DNA from: Escherichia coli
Lineage (GTDB): Bacteria > Pseudomonadota > Gammaproteobacteria > Enterobacterales > Enterobacteriaceae
Direction: 5' to 3' (one strand)
Assembly: GCF_003334815.1 (NCBI RefSeq)
Contig: NZ_QOWO01000016.1
DNA: 64,000 nt
This document shows positions 338 through 48,845 of this stretch, piece after piece (the first letter of the stretch is position 1; the number at the start of each line of letters is the position of its first letter). The position numbers were made by a program, and so were the translations under genes. Under the pieces are notes generated by a model, which saw only the letters and a program-made list of their open reading frames with translations, ran no database searches and was not told where the DNA came from.

Positions 338-508
338 ATGTTTGTCAAACCTGTTAAAGGGCGGTCAGTGCCTGACCCTGCCCGCGGCGACCTTTTGCCC
401 GCCGAAGGGCGAAATGTTGACGAGAACAACTACTGGCTGCGCCGTGAAGCAGCGGGTGATATCCGGCGCGTGAATAAAAAGGTGAACACCGATGACGATA
501 AGCTTTAA
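338..508 (+). CDS. small phage protein (~56 aa) between virion gene and sheath (Mu gp38-like position)
   Basis: ATG at 338, stop 506-508, overlaps sheath start; below ORF-track size cutoff; synteny with Mu-like tail modules. Confidence 0.3.
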   Translation: MFVKPVKGRSVPDPARGDLLPAEGRNVDENNYWLRREAAGDIRRVNKKVNTDDDKL

Positions 509-1988
509 CTCCATTCCGTCGAATACGCTGGTTCCGCTGTTTTATGCGGAAATGGATAACCAGGCGGCGAATACTGCACAGGACAGCGGAGCATCGCTGC
601 TGATTGGTCATGCCAGTAACGGTGCAGAGATTGTTGCCAACAGTCTGGTACTGATGCCGTCGGCAGACTATGCACGCCAGATTTGTGGTGCGGGAAGTCA
701 GCTGGCGCGTATGGTCGAGGCTTATCGCCAGACTGACCCGTTTGGCGAGCTGTATGTGATTGCCGTTCCTGAATCCACGGGCGCGGCGGCAACGGTTACG
801 CTGACGGTGACCGGGGCGGCAACCGAAACCGGCACGGTGAATGTGTATGTGGGACGTACCCGCGTGCAGGCACCGGTGACTAACGGCGATAACGTCACGA
901 TGATTGCCAGCAGTATCCAGGATGCCATCAATGCCGTTCCGACCCTGCCGTTTACGGCTTCATCTTCGGCAGGCGTGGTCACACTGACCGCGCGTCATAA
1001 GGGGCTTTGCGGGAATGAAATTCCTGTCAGCCTCAATTACTACGGCTTTGGTGGGGGCGAAGTGCTGCCAGCGGGCGTACAGATTGCCGTGGCGACGGGT
1101 ACCGCCGGAACGGGTGCTCCGGTTCTCACCGGCGCGGTGGCTGCAATGGCGGATGAGCCGTTTGATTATATCGGCCTGCCGTTCAACGACACGGCCTCCG
1201 TTAACACGCTGGTGACCGAGATGAACGATACCAGCGGTCGCTGGAGCTATGCGCGTCAGCTGTATGGTCATGTGTATACGGCAAAGATCGGCACGCTGTC
1301 AGAACTGGTGACCGCAGGTGACCAGTTTAACCAGCAGCACATTACCCTGGCGGGATACGAAAAAGAGACCCAGACGCCTGCCGACGAGCTGGTGGCAAGC
1401 CGTACCGCCCGCGCAGCGGTGTTTATTCGCAACGATCCGGCACGTCCCACGCAGACCGGTGAGCTGGTGGGTATGCTGCCTGCGCCGAAGGGGAAACGGT
1501 TCACGATGACCGAGCAGCAGACCCTGCTGTCTCATGGCGTGGCAACGGCGTATGTCGAAAGCGGGGTGCTGCGCATTCAGCGTGATGTCACCACGTACAG
1601 GAAAAACGCTTACGGTGTTGCGGATAACAGCTACCTCGACAGCGAGACGCTGCATACCAGCGCGTATGTGCTGCGCAAACTGAAATCCGTCATTACCAGT
1701 AAGTACGGGCGTCACAAGCTTGCCAGCGACGGTACCCGCTTTGGCCCCGGTCAGGCGATTGTCACACCGGCGGTGATCAAAGGGGAACTGCTGGCAACCT
1801 ACCGTCAGCTTGAGCGTGCGGGGATCGTGGAAAACTACGAACTGTTTAAGCAGTACCTGGTTGTGGAGCGTGATGCCAGCGATCCGAACCGCCTGAACAC
1901 GCTGTTCCCGCCTGACTATGTTAACCAGTTGCGTGTCTTTGCCGTGGTTAACCAGTTCCGTCTTCAGTATTCAGAGGAGTCTGCATAA
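492..1988 (+). CDS. contractile tail sheath protein (Mu gpL-like)
   Basis: 498-aa ORF, first of a sheath-tube-chaperone-tape measure series; N-terminus ...SIPSNTLVPLFYAEMDN... typical of Mu-type sheath proteins. Confidence 0.8.
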   Translation: MTISFNSIPSNTLVPLFYAEMDNQAANTAQDSGASLLIGHASNGAEIVANSLVLMPSADYARQICGAGSQLARMVEAYRQTDPFGELYVIAVPESTGAAATVTLTVTGAATETGTVNVYVGRTRVQAPVTNGDNVTMIASSIQDAINAVPTLPFTASSSAGVVTLTARHKGLCGNEIPVSLNYYGFGGGEVLPAGVQIAVATGTAGTGAPVLTGAVAAMADEPFDYIGLPFNDTASVNTLVTEMNDTSGRWSYARQLYGHVYTAKIGTLSELVTAGDQFNQQHITLAGYEKETQTPADELVASRTARAAVFIRNDPARPTQTGELVGMLPAPKGKRFTMTEQQTLLSHGVATAYVESGVLRIQRDVTTYRKNAYGVADNSYLDSETLHTSAYVLRKLKSVITSKYGRHKLASDGTRFGPGQAIVTPAVIKGELLATYRQLERAGIVENYELFKQYLVVERDASDPNRLNTLFPPDYVNQLRVFAVVNQFRLQYSEESA

Positions 1989-2344
1989 TGGCCCGTATCG
2001 GGGGAACCTGTTATTTCAAAATTGACGGTCAGCAGCTATCGCTGACCGGCGGCATTGAGGTGCCCATGAACAGGACGGTCAATGATGACATCATCGGCCT
2101 GGACGGTTCAGTGGACCGCAAGGAAACTCACCGTGCGCCTTATGTCAAAGGGACCTTCAAGGTGCCGAAGAATTTTCCGGTGAGCAAAATCACCTCGTCT
2201 GATGAGATGACCATCACTGCCGAGCTGGCGAACGGTCAGGTCTATGTACTGTCGTCCGCCTGGCTGCACGGCGAAGCGAACCATAATGCCGAAGAAGGTA
2301 CGGTTGATCTTGAGTTCCACGGTGAAGAAGGGGATTACCAGTAA
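1988..2344 (+). CDS. tail tube protein (Mu gpM-like)
   Basis: 118-aa ORF, start overlaps sheath stop (TAATG), position after sheath. Confidence 0.7.
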   Translation: MARIGGTCYFKIDGQQLSLTGGIEVPMNRTVNDDIIGLDGSVDRKETHRAPYVKGTFKVPKNFPVSKITSSDEMTITAELANGQVYVLSSAWLHGEANHNAEEGTVDLEFHGEEGDYQ

Positions 2345-2613
2345 TGAAAGAGCTTGAGTTAAAGAAACCGATTACTGCTCATGGCGAGACACTCTCCGTA
2401 CTGGAGTTTGATGAACCCACCGGGAAGGACGTCCGCGAGCTGGGGTATCCCTACCAGATGAATCAGGATGAGTCAGTCAGACTTCTGGCGCATGTGGTGT
2501 CGAAATACATTGTGCGGCTGGCGAAAGTGCCGCAAAGCTCTGTCGACCAGATGTCTCCGGCAGACCTGAATGCAGCGGCGTGGCTTGTGGCCGGTTTTTT
2601 CCTCCAGGCCTGA
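2344..2613 (+). CDS. tail assembly chaperone, with probable -1 frameshift extension to 2762
   Basis: 89-aa ORF between tube and tape measure; U UUU UUC slippery run at 2595-2601; -1 frame ORF 2580..2762 overlaps. Confidence 0.6.
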   Translation: MKELELKKPITAHGETLSVLEFDEPTGKDVRELGYPYQMNQDESVRLLAHVVSKYIVRLAKVPQSSVDQMSPADLNAAAWLVAGFFLQA

Positions 2614-2754
2614 CGGCTGAATACCTCACTGATCGCTTCTTTGACTGCGCCAGCTACTGGCGCATTAATCCTTTCGAATTGCTGAATATGCCGATCAGTG
2701 AAATTCCCTTGCTGGTCAGTCAGGCAAACAGGATAGAGCAGGAGAAACGCACAC

Positions 2755-4590
2755 ATGGCTGAATTTGAGCTTAAGGCGTTGATCACCGGTGTCGACAGGC
2801 TTTCTCCCGCGCTGTCGAAAATGCAAAAGAAAATCCGGGGATTTAAACGCCAGGCGGAAGAAGCGTCACAGGGGGGGCTGGCGCTTGGTGGCGGACTGGC
2901 AGCGGGTCTGACGCTTTCCCTGAAATCTTATGCCGATCAGGAAAACGCTGCCACCGGGCTGAAAGTCGCCATGATGGATGCGAACGGCGAGGTTGGAAAG
3001 CGCTTTCAGGACATCAATAAACTGGCTATTGGCCTGGGTAACCAGCTACCCGGTACAACGGCTGATTTCCAGAACATGATGCAGATGCTGGTGCGTCAGG
3101 GGATCCCGGCAGAAAACATTCTTGGCGGTGTGGGTAAAGCGACAGCTTATCTTGCGGTACAACTGAAAAAAACACCGGAAGCGGCTGCCGAGTTTGCCGC
3201 AAAGATGCAGGATGCTACCGGAACGGCGTCAGAAGACATGATGGGGCTGTTCGACACAATTCAGAAGGCGTTTTATCTGGGCGTTGACGATACCAACATG
3301 TTGTCCTTCTTCACTAAAACCAGCTCTGTTCTGAAGATGGTGAACAAGGACGGTCTTCAGGCTGCACAGAGCCTTGCCCCCATCAGCGTCATGATGGATC
3401 AGATGGGGATGAACGGGGAGTCGGCAGGTAACGCCCTGCGAAAAGTTATCCAGTCCGGATTAAGCGTTAAGAAAATCAGGGACGTCAATAAAATCATGGC
3501 CCGCCAGAAACTCGGGGTACAGCTCGATTTTACTGACGGCAAAGGGAGTTTTGGCGGTCTTGATAACATGTTCAGGCAACTGGCAAAGCTGCGAAAACTG
3601 ACCGACGTTAAACGAACTGGTGTACTTAAGGCAATATTTGGTGATGATGCTGAAACCCTTCAGGTGGTCAATGCGCTGATCGATAAAGGAAAGGATGGTT
3701 ACGATCAGATCCAGCAGAAGATGAATAAACAGGCCAGCCTGAATAAACGTGTTCAGGCACAGCTTGGTACGCTGTCCAACCTGTGGGAGGCAATGACGGG
3801 GACCGCAACTAACGGTCTTGCAGCTATTGGCGGCGCATTTTCTGGTGACGCTAAAAATATCACGCAATGGCTGGGGGAGTTGGGGGAAAAATTCACGAAG
3901 TTTGCGGATGAAAATCCCCGGGTTATTCGCGGCGTCGTCGGGCTTGCTGCCGGTCTTGCGATTCTGAAACTGGGATTGATGGGCGTGGGCGGTGCCATCA
4001 GTATTGTCAGCAGGATCATGTCGATGACGCCGATTGGCATGATTGCGACGGCGATAGCCCTGGCTGCGGGATTAATTATCACTAACTGGGATGTTGTCGG
4101 ACCTTATTTCAAGAAGCTCTGGGAAACCATTGGTCCTTATTTTGAGGCTGGCTGGGAACTCCTTAAGAAAGTTTTTGCCTGGTCGCCGCTGGGGATGGTG
4201 ATCAATAACTGGGGGCCGGTTGTTAAGTGGTTTCAGGATATGTGGGACAAGCTGAAGCCAATTATTGAGTGGTTTACCGACAGTTCCGGTGACACGGTCG
4301 ATGCCATTAACTCTGCGCAGTGGGGCGCGGGTGCTTATGATGCTTATGGGACGGGAATACCGGCGCGGGGATACACACCTTATCCGGCGGTAGAGCCGGC
4401 TCAGTCAAACAACGCCTCCGATGCCACAGGCCCGAATCCCTTCATGATCAACAAAGCTTCTGCGCCAAAAGTTGATGGTGAGATCAAGGTCTCTTTTGTG
4501 AATTCGCCTCCGGGTATGCGGGTTATGGAAACGCGATCCAGCGGTTTTGATGTCAGCCATGATGTTGGCTATACGCGCTTTGGCAGGTAA
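2755..4590 (+). CDS. tail tape measure protein
   Basis: 611-aa ORF, Ala/Gly-rich, hydrophobic stretch near residues 380-440, position after chaperone. Confidence 0.75.
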   Translation: MAEFELKALITGVDRLSPALSKMQKKIRGFKRQAEEASQGGLALGGGLAAGLTLSLKSYADQENAATGLKVAMMDANGEVGKRFQDINKLAIGLGNQLPGTTADFQNMMQMLVRQGIPAENILGGVGKATAYLAVQLKKTPEAAAEFAAKMQDATGTASEDMMGLFDTIQKAFYLGVDDTNMLSFFTKTSSVLKMVNKDGLQAAQSLAPISVMMDQMGMNGESAGNALRKVIQSGLSVKKIRDVNKIMARQKLGVQLDFTDGKGSFGGLDNMFRQLAKLRKLTDVKRTGVLKAIFGDDAETLQVVNALIDKGKDGYDQIQQKMNKQASLNKRVQAQLGTLSNLWEAMTGTATNGLAAIGGAFSGDAKNITQWLGELGEKFTKFADENPRVIRGVVGLAAGLAILKLGLMGVGGAISIVSRIMSMTPIGMIATAIALAAGLIITNWDVVGPYFKKLWETIGPYFEAGWELLKKVFAWSPLGMVINNWGPVVKWFQDMWDKLKPIIEWFTDSSGDTVDAINSAQWGAGAYDAYGTGIPARGYTPYPAVEPAQSNNASDATGPNPFMINKASAPKVDGEIKVSFVNSPPGMRVMETRSSGFDVSHDVGYTRFGR

Positions 4591-9651: not shown

Positions 9652-10332
9652 ATGCATCGTATAGACACGAAAACCGCGCAGAAGGATAAGTTCGGCGCGG
9701 GTAAGAACGGTTTTACCCGTGGTAACCCCCAGACTGGCACGCCTGCCACCGATCTGGATGATGACTACTTTGATATGTTGCAGGAAGAACTCTGCAGCGT
9801 GGTGGAGGCATCCGGTGCCAGCCTGGAGAAGGCGCGGCACGACCAGTTGCTTACCGCGCTTCGTGCGCTGCTGTTAAGCCGCAAGAATCCGTTTGGCGAT
9901 ATCAAATCGGATGGCACGGTGAAAACGGCTCTCGAAAACCTTGGTTTGGGAGAAGCGGCAACGAGGAACGTCGGAACGGATACCGGGCAAGTACCAGATA
10001 TGAGTAGTTTTACAACGGGGTACTCTGGAGCAGCAGACTGGCCGAATAGTAAATCTGGATGGAGTAAGGGGCCGGATGGGGTAATTACACAATGGGGTAT
10101 TTTCGGTTTCCCCGTTGGACAGACAGGGACGAATGTTGTTTTCCCGCTACCTTTCCCCGCGCGGGTCGAATCAATTACACTGACAATGGCAGATATCCAG
10201 GAGTCTCTGCTTTCTCCAGCAACCATGCCTGCTTATGGAGTTAACTCAACTGGTACTTCAAGAACGGGTTTTACAGCCCGTATGTCAGGCGCCGGTGGGT
10301 TTAATCTTTGCTATATAGCGAAAGGGAGATAA
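9652..10332 (+). CDS. tail fibre protein: constant N-terminal part (Sc, to ~9945) fused to variable C-terminal part Sv
   Basis: 226-aa ORF; [15 protein letters not shown]-terminal fibre motif; gix-like crossover site inside the gene at 9930-9956. Confidence 0.75.
9930..9956. other. gix/hix-like invertase crossover site (left), inside tail fibre gene
   Basis: tctcgaaaaccttggtttgggagaagc; core ttggtttgggagaa is repeated in inverted orientation at 11822-11847. Confidence 0.7.
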
Positions 10333-10336
10333 CAGA

Positions 10337-10780
10337 ATGAATAAAGTTAAAAGTGTTTACAGCCCGTCCGAAAATGCAATCTACAACGCAGCGCTATATG
10401 AAAGTTATATCAAGGAGGGGACATGGCCGCAGGATGGTATTGAAATCAGCGATGAGGATGCTGTCAGATTTAATGGGGGAAATAAGCCAACAGGAAAAAT
10501 GCTGGGAATGGTTTCAGGGACCCTTGCATGGGTTGATGAGCCGCCGCTTTCACCAGAACAGAAAATATCAGATGCAGAAAACATGAAAGCCACATTTCGT
10601 GCAAAAGCTGACAGTGAAATATCCTGGCGTCAGGATGCTGTTGATGCTGGTATCGCAACTGATGAAGAAACTTCAACTCTCACCCAATGGAAGAAATACC
10701 GTGTGCTGCTGATGCGTGTTGATACTTCAACAGCACCCGATATTGAATGGCCTACGCCTCCGGCAGTCCAGGCCAGATGA
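10337..10780 (+). CDS. tail fibre assembly chaperone (U)
   Basis: 147-aa ORF with C-terminal ...DTSTAPDIEWPTPP Tfa motif. Confidence 0.75.
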   Translation: MNKVKSVYSPSENAIYNAALYESYIKEGTWPQDGIEISDEDAVRFNGGNKPTGKMLGMVSGTLAWVDEPPLSPEQKISDAENMKATFRAKADSEISWRQDAVDAGIATDEETSTLTQWKKYRVLLMRVDTSTAPDIEWPTPPAVQAR

Positions 10781-21164: not shown

Positions 21165-21575
21165 CCCTTCGTAGGCAGCATCCGGCAGTCGGCGCATAAT
21201 GCCTGATGCGACGCTTGTCGCGTCTTATCATGCCTACAGGTTTGTGCCGAACCGTAGGCCGGATAAGGCGTTCACGCCGCATCCGGCAGTTGGCGCACAA
21301 TGCCTGATGCGACGCTTGACGCGTCTTATCATGCCTACAAGTCTGTGCCGAACCGTAGGCCGGATAAGGCGTTCAGGCCGCATCCGGCAGTTGGCGCACA
21401 ATGCCTGATGCGACGCTGACGCGTCTTATCATGCCTACAAGTCTGTGCCGAACCGTAGGCCGGATAAGGCGTTCACGCCGCATCCGGCAGTCGGCGCATA
21501 ATGCCTGATGCGACGCTTGTCGCGTCTTATCATGCCTACAAGTCTGTGCCGAACCGTAGGCCGTATCCGGCATGT
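21165..21575. repeat. REP/BIME cluster, about four tandem ~95-bp units
   Basis: Repeated gccggataaggcgttcacgccgcatccggca and gcctgatgcgacgct...gcgtcttatcatgcctaca modules. Confidence 0.85.
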
Positions 21576-48721: not shown

Positions 48722-48790
<69 letters not shown>

Positions 48791-48813
48791 CGCGTACAGG
48801 AAACACAGAAAAA

Positions 48814-48845
48814 AGCCCGCACCTGACAGTGCGGGCTTTTTTTTT
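48814..48845 (+). terminator. thr attenuator terminator
   Basis: agcccgcacctgacagtgcgggct hairpin plus T9. Confidence 0.9.

Follow-up and report, generated by a model that had tools for sequence, protein, structure and literature searches.

The window analysed here is a 64,000-nucleotide (nt) stretch of Escherichia coli DNA (RefSeq assembly GCF_003334815.1, contig NZ_QOWO01000016.1). It is E. coli chromosome carrying a prophage related to Shigella phage SfV, and our subject is this prophage's gene for the tail assembly chaperone together with the open reading frame (ORF) that overlaps its end in the -1 frame (Table 1). The tail genes follow each other in the order sheath, tube, 89-amino acid (aa) ORF and tape measure, then DNA circulation and baseplate genes, and constitute a Mu-type contractile tail module; the order sheath, tube, chaperone, tape measure is common to SfV, ST64B, phiP27, Mu and P2. 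The 89-aa protein matched the Pfam family PF10109 (Phage_TAC_7) with E=8.8e-16, its residues 4-86 aligning with positions 2-78 of the 79-position model. Pfam entitles this family "Phage tail assembly chaperone proteins, E, or 41 or 14" (P2 gpE and Mu gp41). All homologues found in the protein database carry PF10109, and RefSeq names the product "phage tail assembly protein". Judged from family and gene order, the 89-aa ORF is thus identified as a PF10109 chaperone at the canonical site between the tube and tape measure genes. Its ATG (2344-2346) overlaps the TAA of the tube gene (2342-2344) by one base, and an AGGAG at 2740-2744 is the likely ribosome binding site of the tape measure gene.

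The preliminary description of this DNA, made from its letters alone, had proposed a programmed -1 frameshift in the chaperone gene. The sequence elements on which it relied were present: an 89-aa ORF from ATG 2344 to TGA 2611-2613 and, at 2595-2601, the heptamer TTTTTTC in the X_XXY_YYZ register (GG_T TTT TTC), separated from the zero-frame stop by three sense codons (the zero frame ends GCC GGT TTT TTC CTC CAG GCC TGA). The overlapping second ORF, placed at 2580-2762, was likewise found in the -1 frame (2580 mod 3 = 0 versus 2344 mod 3 = 1), with 60 codons from GTG 2580 to TGA 2760-2762, but its GTG did not hold up as a meaningful start. The -1 frame is in fact open from 2472 through TGA 2760-2762, and 2580 is merely the first GTG within it; the +1 frame closes two codons beyond the zero-frame stop. 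A -1 slip after TTC would give a protein of 139 aa, made of the shared residues 1-86 followed by the 53 residues PPGLTAEYLTDRFFDCASYWRINPFELLNMPISEIPLLVSQANRIEQEKRTHG. The predicted junction peptide of this fusion is VPQSSVDQMSPADLNAAAWLVAGFFPPGLTAEYLTDR, against VPQSSVDQMSPADLNAAAWLVAGFFLQA in the zero frame.

Table 1. Features of the tail gene region discussed in the text (window coordinates; CDS, coding sequence).
Feature	Coordinates	Strand	Family, register or remark
Tail sheath gene	492-1988		
Tail tube gene, 118 aa	1988..2344	+	phrog_185 tail tube, E=1e-44; so annotated in SfV and E. coli RefSeq
Zero-frame tail assembly chaperone ORF, 89 aa, 9.9 kDa	2344..2613	+	PF10109, phrog_166; P2 gpE equivalent
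Slippery heptamer T_TTT_TTC	2595..2601	+	register GG_T TTT TTC
-1 frame extension, 53 codons	2601..2762	+	CCT 2601-2603 to GGC 2757-2759, TGA 2760-2762; P2 E' equivalent
Predicted fusion CDS join(2344..2601,2601..2762), 139 aa, 15.8 kDa	2344..2762	+	P2 gpE+E' equivalent
Tape measure gene, 611 aa	2755..4590	+	phrog_28, phrog_17727

Taken in this one sequence, the heptamer was suggestive and not decisive. TTTTTTC occurs 25 times in the window, both strands counted, versus 16 expected. The rate of in-register heptamers in 52 long window ORFs puts a chance occurrence in the 46-codon overlap at a probability of 0.12 for any X_XXY_YYZ, 0.03 for the efficient motifs and 0.01 for T_TTT_TTY. It is the conservation of the slippery site in relatives that places it far above chance.

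With the predicted fusion as query, tblastn recovered relatives (39-77% identity) among the phages of Edwardsiella, Pantoea, Salmonella, Shigella, E. coli and Burkholderia, in which the two halves occupy separate frames. To these we added 11 further loci from species-representative genomes, obtained in a scan with a four-sequence alignment, and, by hand, Pseudomonas, Stutzerimonas and Bordetella phages as well as P2; a scan of viral contigs contributed 80 near-identical loci and little diversity. The preliminary description had stated that a slippery site lacking conservation in related phages would speak against the frameshift. What we observed was that 21 distinct loci, P2 among them and the most distant at 23% identity, have T_TTT_TTN in register at the homologous codon. 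These loci belong to phages or prophages of Escherichia, Shigella, Salmonella, Edwardsiella, Pantoea, Citrobacter, Kluyvera, Buttiauxella, Kosakonia, Enterobacter, Burkholderia, Pseudomonas, Stutzerimonas and Bordetella, in addition to P2. The last base varies between groups: the SfV group, Burkholderia and Pseudomonas DVM-2008 have T_TTT_TTC; ST64B, F1055, SfIV and phiP27 have T_TTT_TTT; and P2, PG1 and a Bordetella phage have T_TTT_TTG.

The codon preceding the run is GGT, AAT, CGT, AGT, CCT or GAT and ends with T in every locus of the full set. Its wobble base was T in 18 of 18 loci of a subset, across Gly, Arg, Asn and Ser (Pro and Asp also occurring in the full set), and the first Phe codon was TTT in the same 18. 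The invariant Pro, Ser, Asp and Asn codons located shortly upstream had mixed wobble bases in these loci, for instance C in 6 and T in 12 for Asp, and T in 11 and C in 7 for Asn. This pattern indicates that the slippery site is constrained at the nucleotide level, beyond the amino acids that it encodes. The site is fixed, and the zero-frame stop shifts between 3 and 22 sense codons downstream of it; the zero-frame product measures 89-109 aa and the fusion 136-142 aa in 19 of the 21 loci.

The extension itself behaved as a coding sequence. It could be aligned in every relative, including the E' part of P2, with the motifs [FY]W[RK][IVL][ND]P..E and A[NV]RI shared across relatives and with Ala103 and Pro110 invariant down to P2 E'. 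Residues 80-139 of the fusion matched phrog_32181 (E=6.5e-41), a family of unknown function with 63 positions that was built from separately called ORFs; no NCBIfam model matched the extension or the fusion. The column entropies at the three codon positions were 0.93/0.76/1.39 for the extension read in the -1 frame, versus 0.76/0.57/1.44 for the zero-frame part. The extension thus appears to be under protein-coding selection in the -1 frame, with third-position wobble as in the zero-frame part. In 11 of 17 loci, the -1 frame had no ATG, GTG or TTG ahead of the heptamer, and where an upstream start did exist its NTG consisted of a variable wobble base followed by a conserved zero-frame TGG (Trp). 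Because a start codon of its own is usually missing, the extension would be expressible solely by recoding. In 13 of 17 relatives, an 8-nt overlap (ATGGCTGA) joins its stop codon to the ATG of the tape measure gene.

An experimentally established case is provided by P2, in which T_TTT_TTG within the FETUD tail operon yields a 91-aa E and a 142-aa E+E' (PMC3091744; RefSeq annotation). Both chaperones belong to PF10109 and are encoded at the same position, with the tube gene on one side and the tape measure gene on the other, and their T-runs occupy homologous codons (V-G-F-L, GGT TTT TTG, in P2 and A-G-F-F, GGT TTT TTC, here). The similarities extend to the sizes of the two products (89 and 139 aa here), to the alignable extension with its shared [FY]W..P.EL and invariant Ala and Pro, to the 8-nt overlap with the tape measure ATG (in P2, 19857 is the end of E+E' and 19850 the start of T) and to the lack of a stimulatory RNA structure (PMC3091744 for P2). 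There are also differences. The last base of the heptamer is G in P2, C here and T in the ST64B group. The proteins share 23% identity, and a pairwise profile comparison (hhalign) against P2 E+E' alone was collinear but weak (E=0.02, probability 2.3%). The tail genes that surround the SfV-type chaperone resemble those of Mu (sheath L, tube M, DNA circulation N) and not those of P2. Finally, the fusion has been shown in P2 and is predicted here. The type of event is in any case a known one, ordinary P2 E/E+E' recoding that current annotation has missed.

We thus consider it likely that a programmed -1 ribosomal frameshift gives rise to an 89-aa and a 139-aa product from a single start codon; the proposal of the preliminary description is supported by the family of the protein, its position, the conserved in-register site and the conserved extension. 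The majority of ribosomes would read 2344-2613 and release the 89-aa chaperone. A minority would slip back by one base when tRNA-Phe, which reads both UUU and UUC, is paired with UUU in the P site (2596-2598) and with UUC in the A site (2599-2601). The two tRNAs would then pair again with UUU and UUU at 2595-2600, reading would resume at CCU 2601 so that base 2601 is read twice, and translation in the -1 frame would run to UGA 2760-2762, producing the 139-aa fusion. If lambda gpG/gpGT and P2 gpE/gpE+E' are taken as models, the N-terminal domain common to both products would coat the tape measure protein, the rare C-terminal extension would recruit the tube protein, and the ratio set by slippage would control tail assembly. 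The slippage itself, its ribosomal nature, how efficient it is and what each domain does are our inferences.

Several observations weigh against this reading. For the SfV-like group there is no observed fusion protein, nor any database record in which one is annotated. Since the relatives are homologous, the conservation counts given above are not independent events. In one of them, Paraburkholderia phage IPK (PV588664.1, flagged UNVERIFIED; L011:786-1300), the T-run is missing (GGC TTC TTC), yet the extension is kept. The -1 frame of IPK opens just 9 nt ahead of the zero-frame stop (GAG GGC GCG TAA), which implies that in this phage the shift site differs or the sequence contains an error. 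The bare motif also reached just about 0.1% in the reporter system (PMC4066793). We found no stimulator that is conserved: in a consensus fold of 12 sequences, there was no conserved structure 5-10 nt downstream of the heptamer, and the sole hairpin, at a distance of 44 nt on the 3' side, lacks compensatory changes and is disrupted in 2 of the 12 relatives. Upstream, a Shine-Dalgarno-like sequence could be read from the alignment in a few relatives only (for example GGGAGG in L099), and the hairpins obtained by folding this region in 11 relatives were not significant.

The reporter data from E. coli put these points in context. Slippage on U_UUU_UUC was 0.12% for the bare motif, rising to 0.89% next to the IS911 stimulator and to 7.6% next to the IS3 pseudoknot, the corresponding values being 0.33%, 0.45% and 10.2% for U_UUU_UUU and 0.12%, 0.25% and 0.77% for U_UUU_UUG, the motif of P2 (PMC4066793, Table S3). 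In the same study, H_HHU_UUY was among the 15 best -1 motifs, and U_UUU_UUC and U_UUU_UUU belong to the class of highest efficiency (PMC4066793). A downstream hairpin or pseudoknot at 5-9 nt, or an upstream Shine-Dalgarno-like sequence, is a common stimulator, not an obligatory one; for P2 it is reported to be absent (PMC3091744). As no downstream hairpin was reported there, the lack of a stimulator here is consistent with P2 and its relatives (PMC3091744).

Two candidate structures were tried and rejected in the course of these searches. Downstream of the heptamer, the single-sequence fold had z = -3.5, but the consensus of 12 relatives retained one distant hairpin only. This hairpin (2646-2664) lies inside the extension and has a perfect 8-bp stem, UGCGCCAG-CUA-CUGGCGCA, which is identical in 10 of the 12 relatives with a variable loop; it overlaps the conserved Cys-Ala-Ser-Tyr-Trp-Arg codons and is too distant for a canonical stimulator. 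The other candidate, a weak terminator-like hairpin followed by the T-run at 2581-2601, was picked up by the consensus scan; in 11 relatives its z ranged from -2.0 to +1.5 and there was no common structure.

We modelled the fusion with AlphaFold2 from an 18-sequence alignment and obtained a predicted local distance difference test (pLDDT) score of 93.4 and a predicted template modelling (pTM) score of 0.84. In the extension the pLDDT was 86-94, with helices at 92-106, 110-113 and 118-138. No relative was found in the PDB, either by sequence or with Foldseek, and the best viral fold matches (BFVD) were tail or tape measure chaperones, the best of them with E=4.8e-5. This similarity of predicted fold provides indirect support for a putative chaperone activity, that is, for tape measure binding, absence from the virion and a need in tail assembly. 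In the model, the E' segment is predicted to pack on the E domain as a single compact fold (the pTM being that of the whole fusion) and not to form an independent tube-binding module; if true, the extension would alter the behaviour of the chaperone domain itself.

There is a small chance that the recoding differs from a plain lambda-style frameshift with two domains, either in setting its level without a stimulator or in the packing of E' on E. Because no conserved RNA stimulator was found and the bare motif slips at about 0.1%, something unrecognised might set the working level. Candidates that might do so are RNA polymerase slippage on top of ribosomal slippage, a nascent-peptide effect of the conserved W-x-V-A-G-F-F and the hairpin located 44 nt downstream.

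In lambda too, a chaperone and its frameshift-extended form are made from one start directly upstream of the tape measure gene; the ratio of gpG to gpGT matters for tail assembly and both are missing from the virion (PMC5009743). Its tape measure protein is coated by the N-terminal domain, whereas recruitment of the tube protein falls to the extension (PMC5009743), and the extension described here may by analogy bind the tube protein as the lambda T domain binds gpV. Lambda differs, however, by its slippery sequence (G_GGA_AAG), by the absence of any detectable sequence relationship (PF10109 was the sole family matched here) and by its siphovirus tail, the tail here being contractile.

Mu gp41 shares the Pfam family, by name, and the same module of sheath, tube, chaperone, tape measure and DNA circulation protein. 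In contrast to the SfV group, gp41 measures 144 aa in the zero frame, and CGG GGG CGA, where no T-run is present, is followed in the +1/-2 frame by an E'-like extension (PEWALSLPLSRFFRHCQQAK; L012:3553-4140). This frame fits the -2 shift that has been reported for Mu (PMC5009743). In the SfV/ST64B group, a P2-type -1 slippery site is thus found in a tail module that is Mu-like, and Mu-like modules are not uniform in their recoding.

Among the alternatives to a ribosomal frameshift, transcriptional slippage fares best. RNA polymerase stuttering on the T-run would add one U to some transcripts and yield the same 139-aa fusion, with its G-F-F-P-P junction. Since the same protein results, the two processes are inseparable by sequence and every comparative result given above fits both equally. 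The site is indeed a homopolymer, of six T here and seven in ST64B, SfIV and phiP27; substantial slippage by the E. coli RNA polymerase needs, however, runs of about 8-9 or more, and the T-run does not exceed seven in any relative, being mostly exactly six in the ribosomal register. UUUUUUU is under-represented in all frames of E. coli genes, which the authors blame in part on transcriptional slippage (PMC4066793), whereas U_UUU_UUY is an experimentally efficient ribosomal motif in this species (PMC4066793) and the homologous T6G site of P2 is annotated and cited as a translational frameshift (PMC3091744; RefSeq). Even if the lack of a ribosomal stimulator would suit it, we regard transcriptional slippage as an unlikely source of the fusion.

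Translation of the ORF 2580-2762 as an independent gene of 60 aa, starting from GTG 2580, seems very improbable. The GTG is there, one GenBank record calls this ORF separately as a "hypothetical protein" (URC08943.1) and the PHROGs database holds a family of such called ORFs (phrog_32181). However, the independent start was rejected as unconserved and as a by-product of the conserved zero-frame Trp codon: this NTG is CTG or missing in 11 of 17 relatives. No Shine-Dalgarno sequence precedes GTG 2580 (AGACCTGAATGCAGCGGC), the -1 frame opens merely 15-30 nt ahead of the heptamer in several relatives, and the length that is conserved is that of the fusion, not that of the separate ORF.

The reading in which heptamer and open -1 frame coincide by chance and the 89-aa protein alone is made, which could draw on the 12% single-sequence probability of some in-register heptamer (about 1% for T_TTT_TTY) and on the failure of every annotation pipeline to call the fusion, is highly improbable, and the comparative data already contradict it, as the heptamer is conserved in its nucleotides and the extension in its protein sequence down to 23% identity, with coding periodicity in the extension and a fusion fold of high confidence.

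The probable programmed frameshift mainly has consequences for annotation. The joined CDS is annotated nowhere among SfV, SfIV, ST64B, phiP27, EPP-1, AH07, F1055, BgVeeders33 and the E. coli RefSeq entries, which list the zero-frame protein only, and the 139-aa product was unannotated in the GenBank, RefSeq and PGAP records examined. The phrase "translational frameshift" is absent from the SfIV genome paper. None of the five prophage clusters of Sharma et al. (2014) is of the SfV type; the predictions of Xu et al. (2004) are outside this comparison. Annotating join(2344..2601,2601..2762) would restore a protein that tail assembly probably cannot do without, and would remove a spurious gene call, that of the separate hypothetical protein. 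The biology concerned is ordinary and opens no new biological question.

Among 5.8 billion protein clusters, the fusion was represented by three singletons only (P0001-P0003), each in a single frame. These one-frame fusions most likely result from indels, and sequencing errors at the homopolymer are the simplest explanation for them.

Four near-identical prophage copies in IMG/VR vary exactly at the slippery site, by indels or substitutions in the GG/T-run: L013:1701-1800, L014, L074 and L079 (2585427747_000001, 2585427730_000011, 2585427748_000014 and 2585427757_000001, respectively). L013 and L014 read GGGTTTTTTCC, with one additional G that brings the entire 139-aa fusion into one frame, and the site reads GGGTTTTTCC in L074 and GGGTTTTTTCTCC in L079. 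Because these copies belong to one IMG id series, homopolymer sequencing errors are the simplest reading.

The region studied is 99.3% identical to SfV (orf12-orf14), and its identity to SfI, SfII and two E. coli phages is 98-99%. Matching DNA was present in 919 of 5426 complete E. coli genomes, and the prophage module also occurs in many other Enterobacterales. Further along the prophage, positions 9652-12456 probably correspond to a segment of tail-fibre genes that can invert. Its + strand carries fibre and assembly genes (9652-10332 and 10337-10780), its - strand an alternative pair of fibre C-terminus and assembly gene (11354-11875 and 10752-11354), and a pinE-like site-specific recombinase follows at about 11866-12456. 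The prophage end adjoins prfC, with small cargo genes between them (12800-17900) that encode an LPO_1073/Vpar_1526 family protein and a DinI-like protein. In the remainder of the window we found several naRNA4 (REP-type) repeats, at 21257-21536 (three in tandem), 35634-35712 and 40030-40107. A thr operon leader (Rfam RF00506) is located at 48726-48845, and the window thus spans 100/0 min of the E. coli map.

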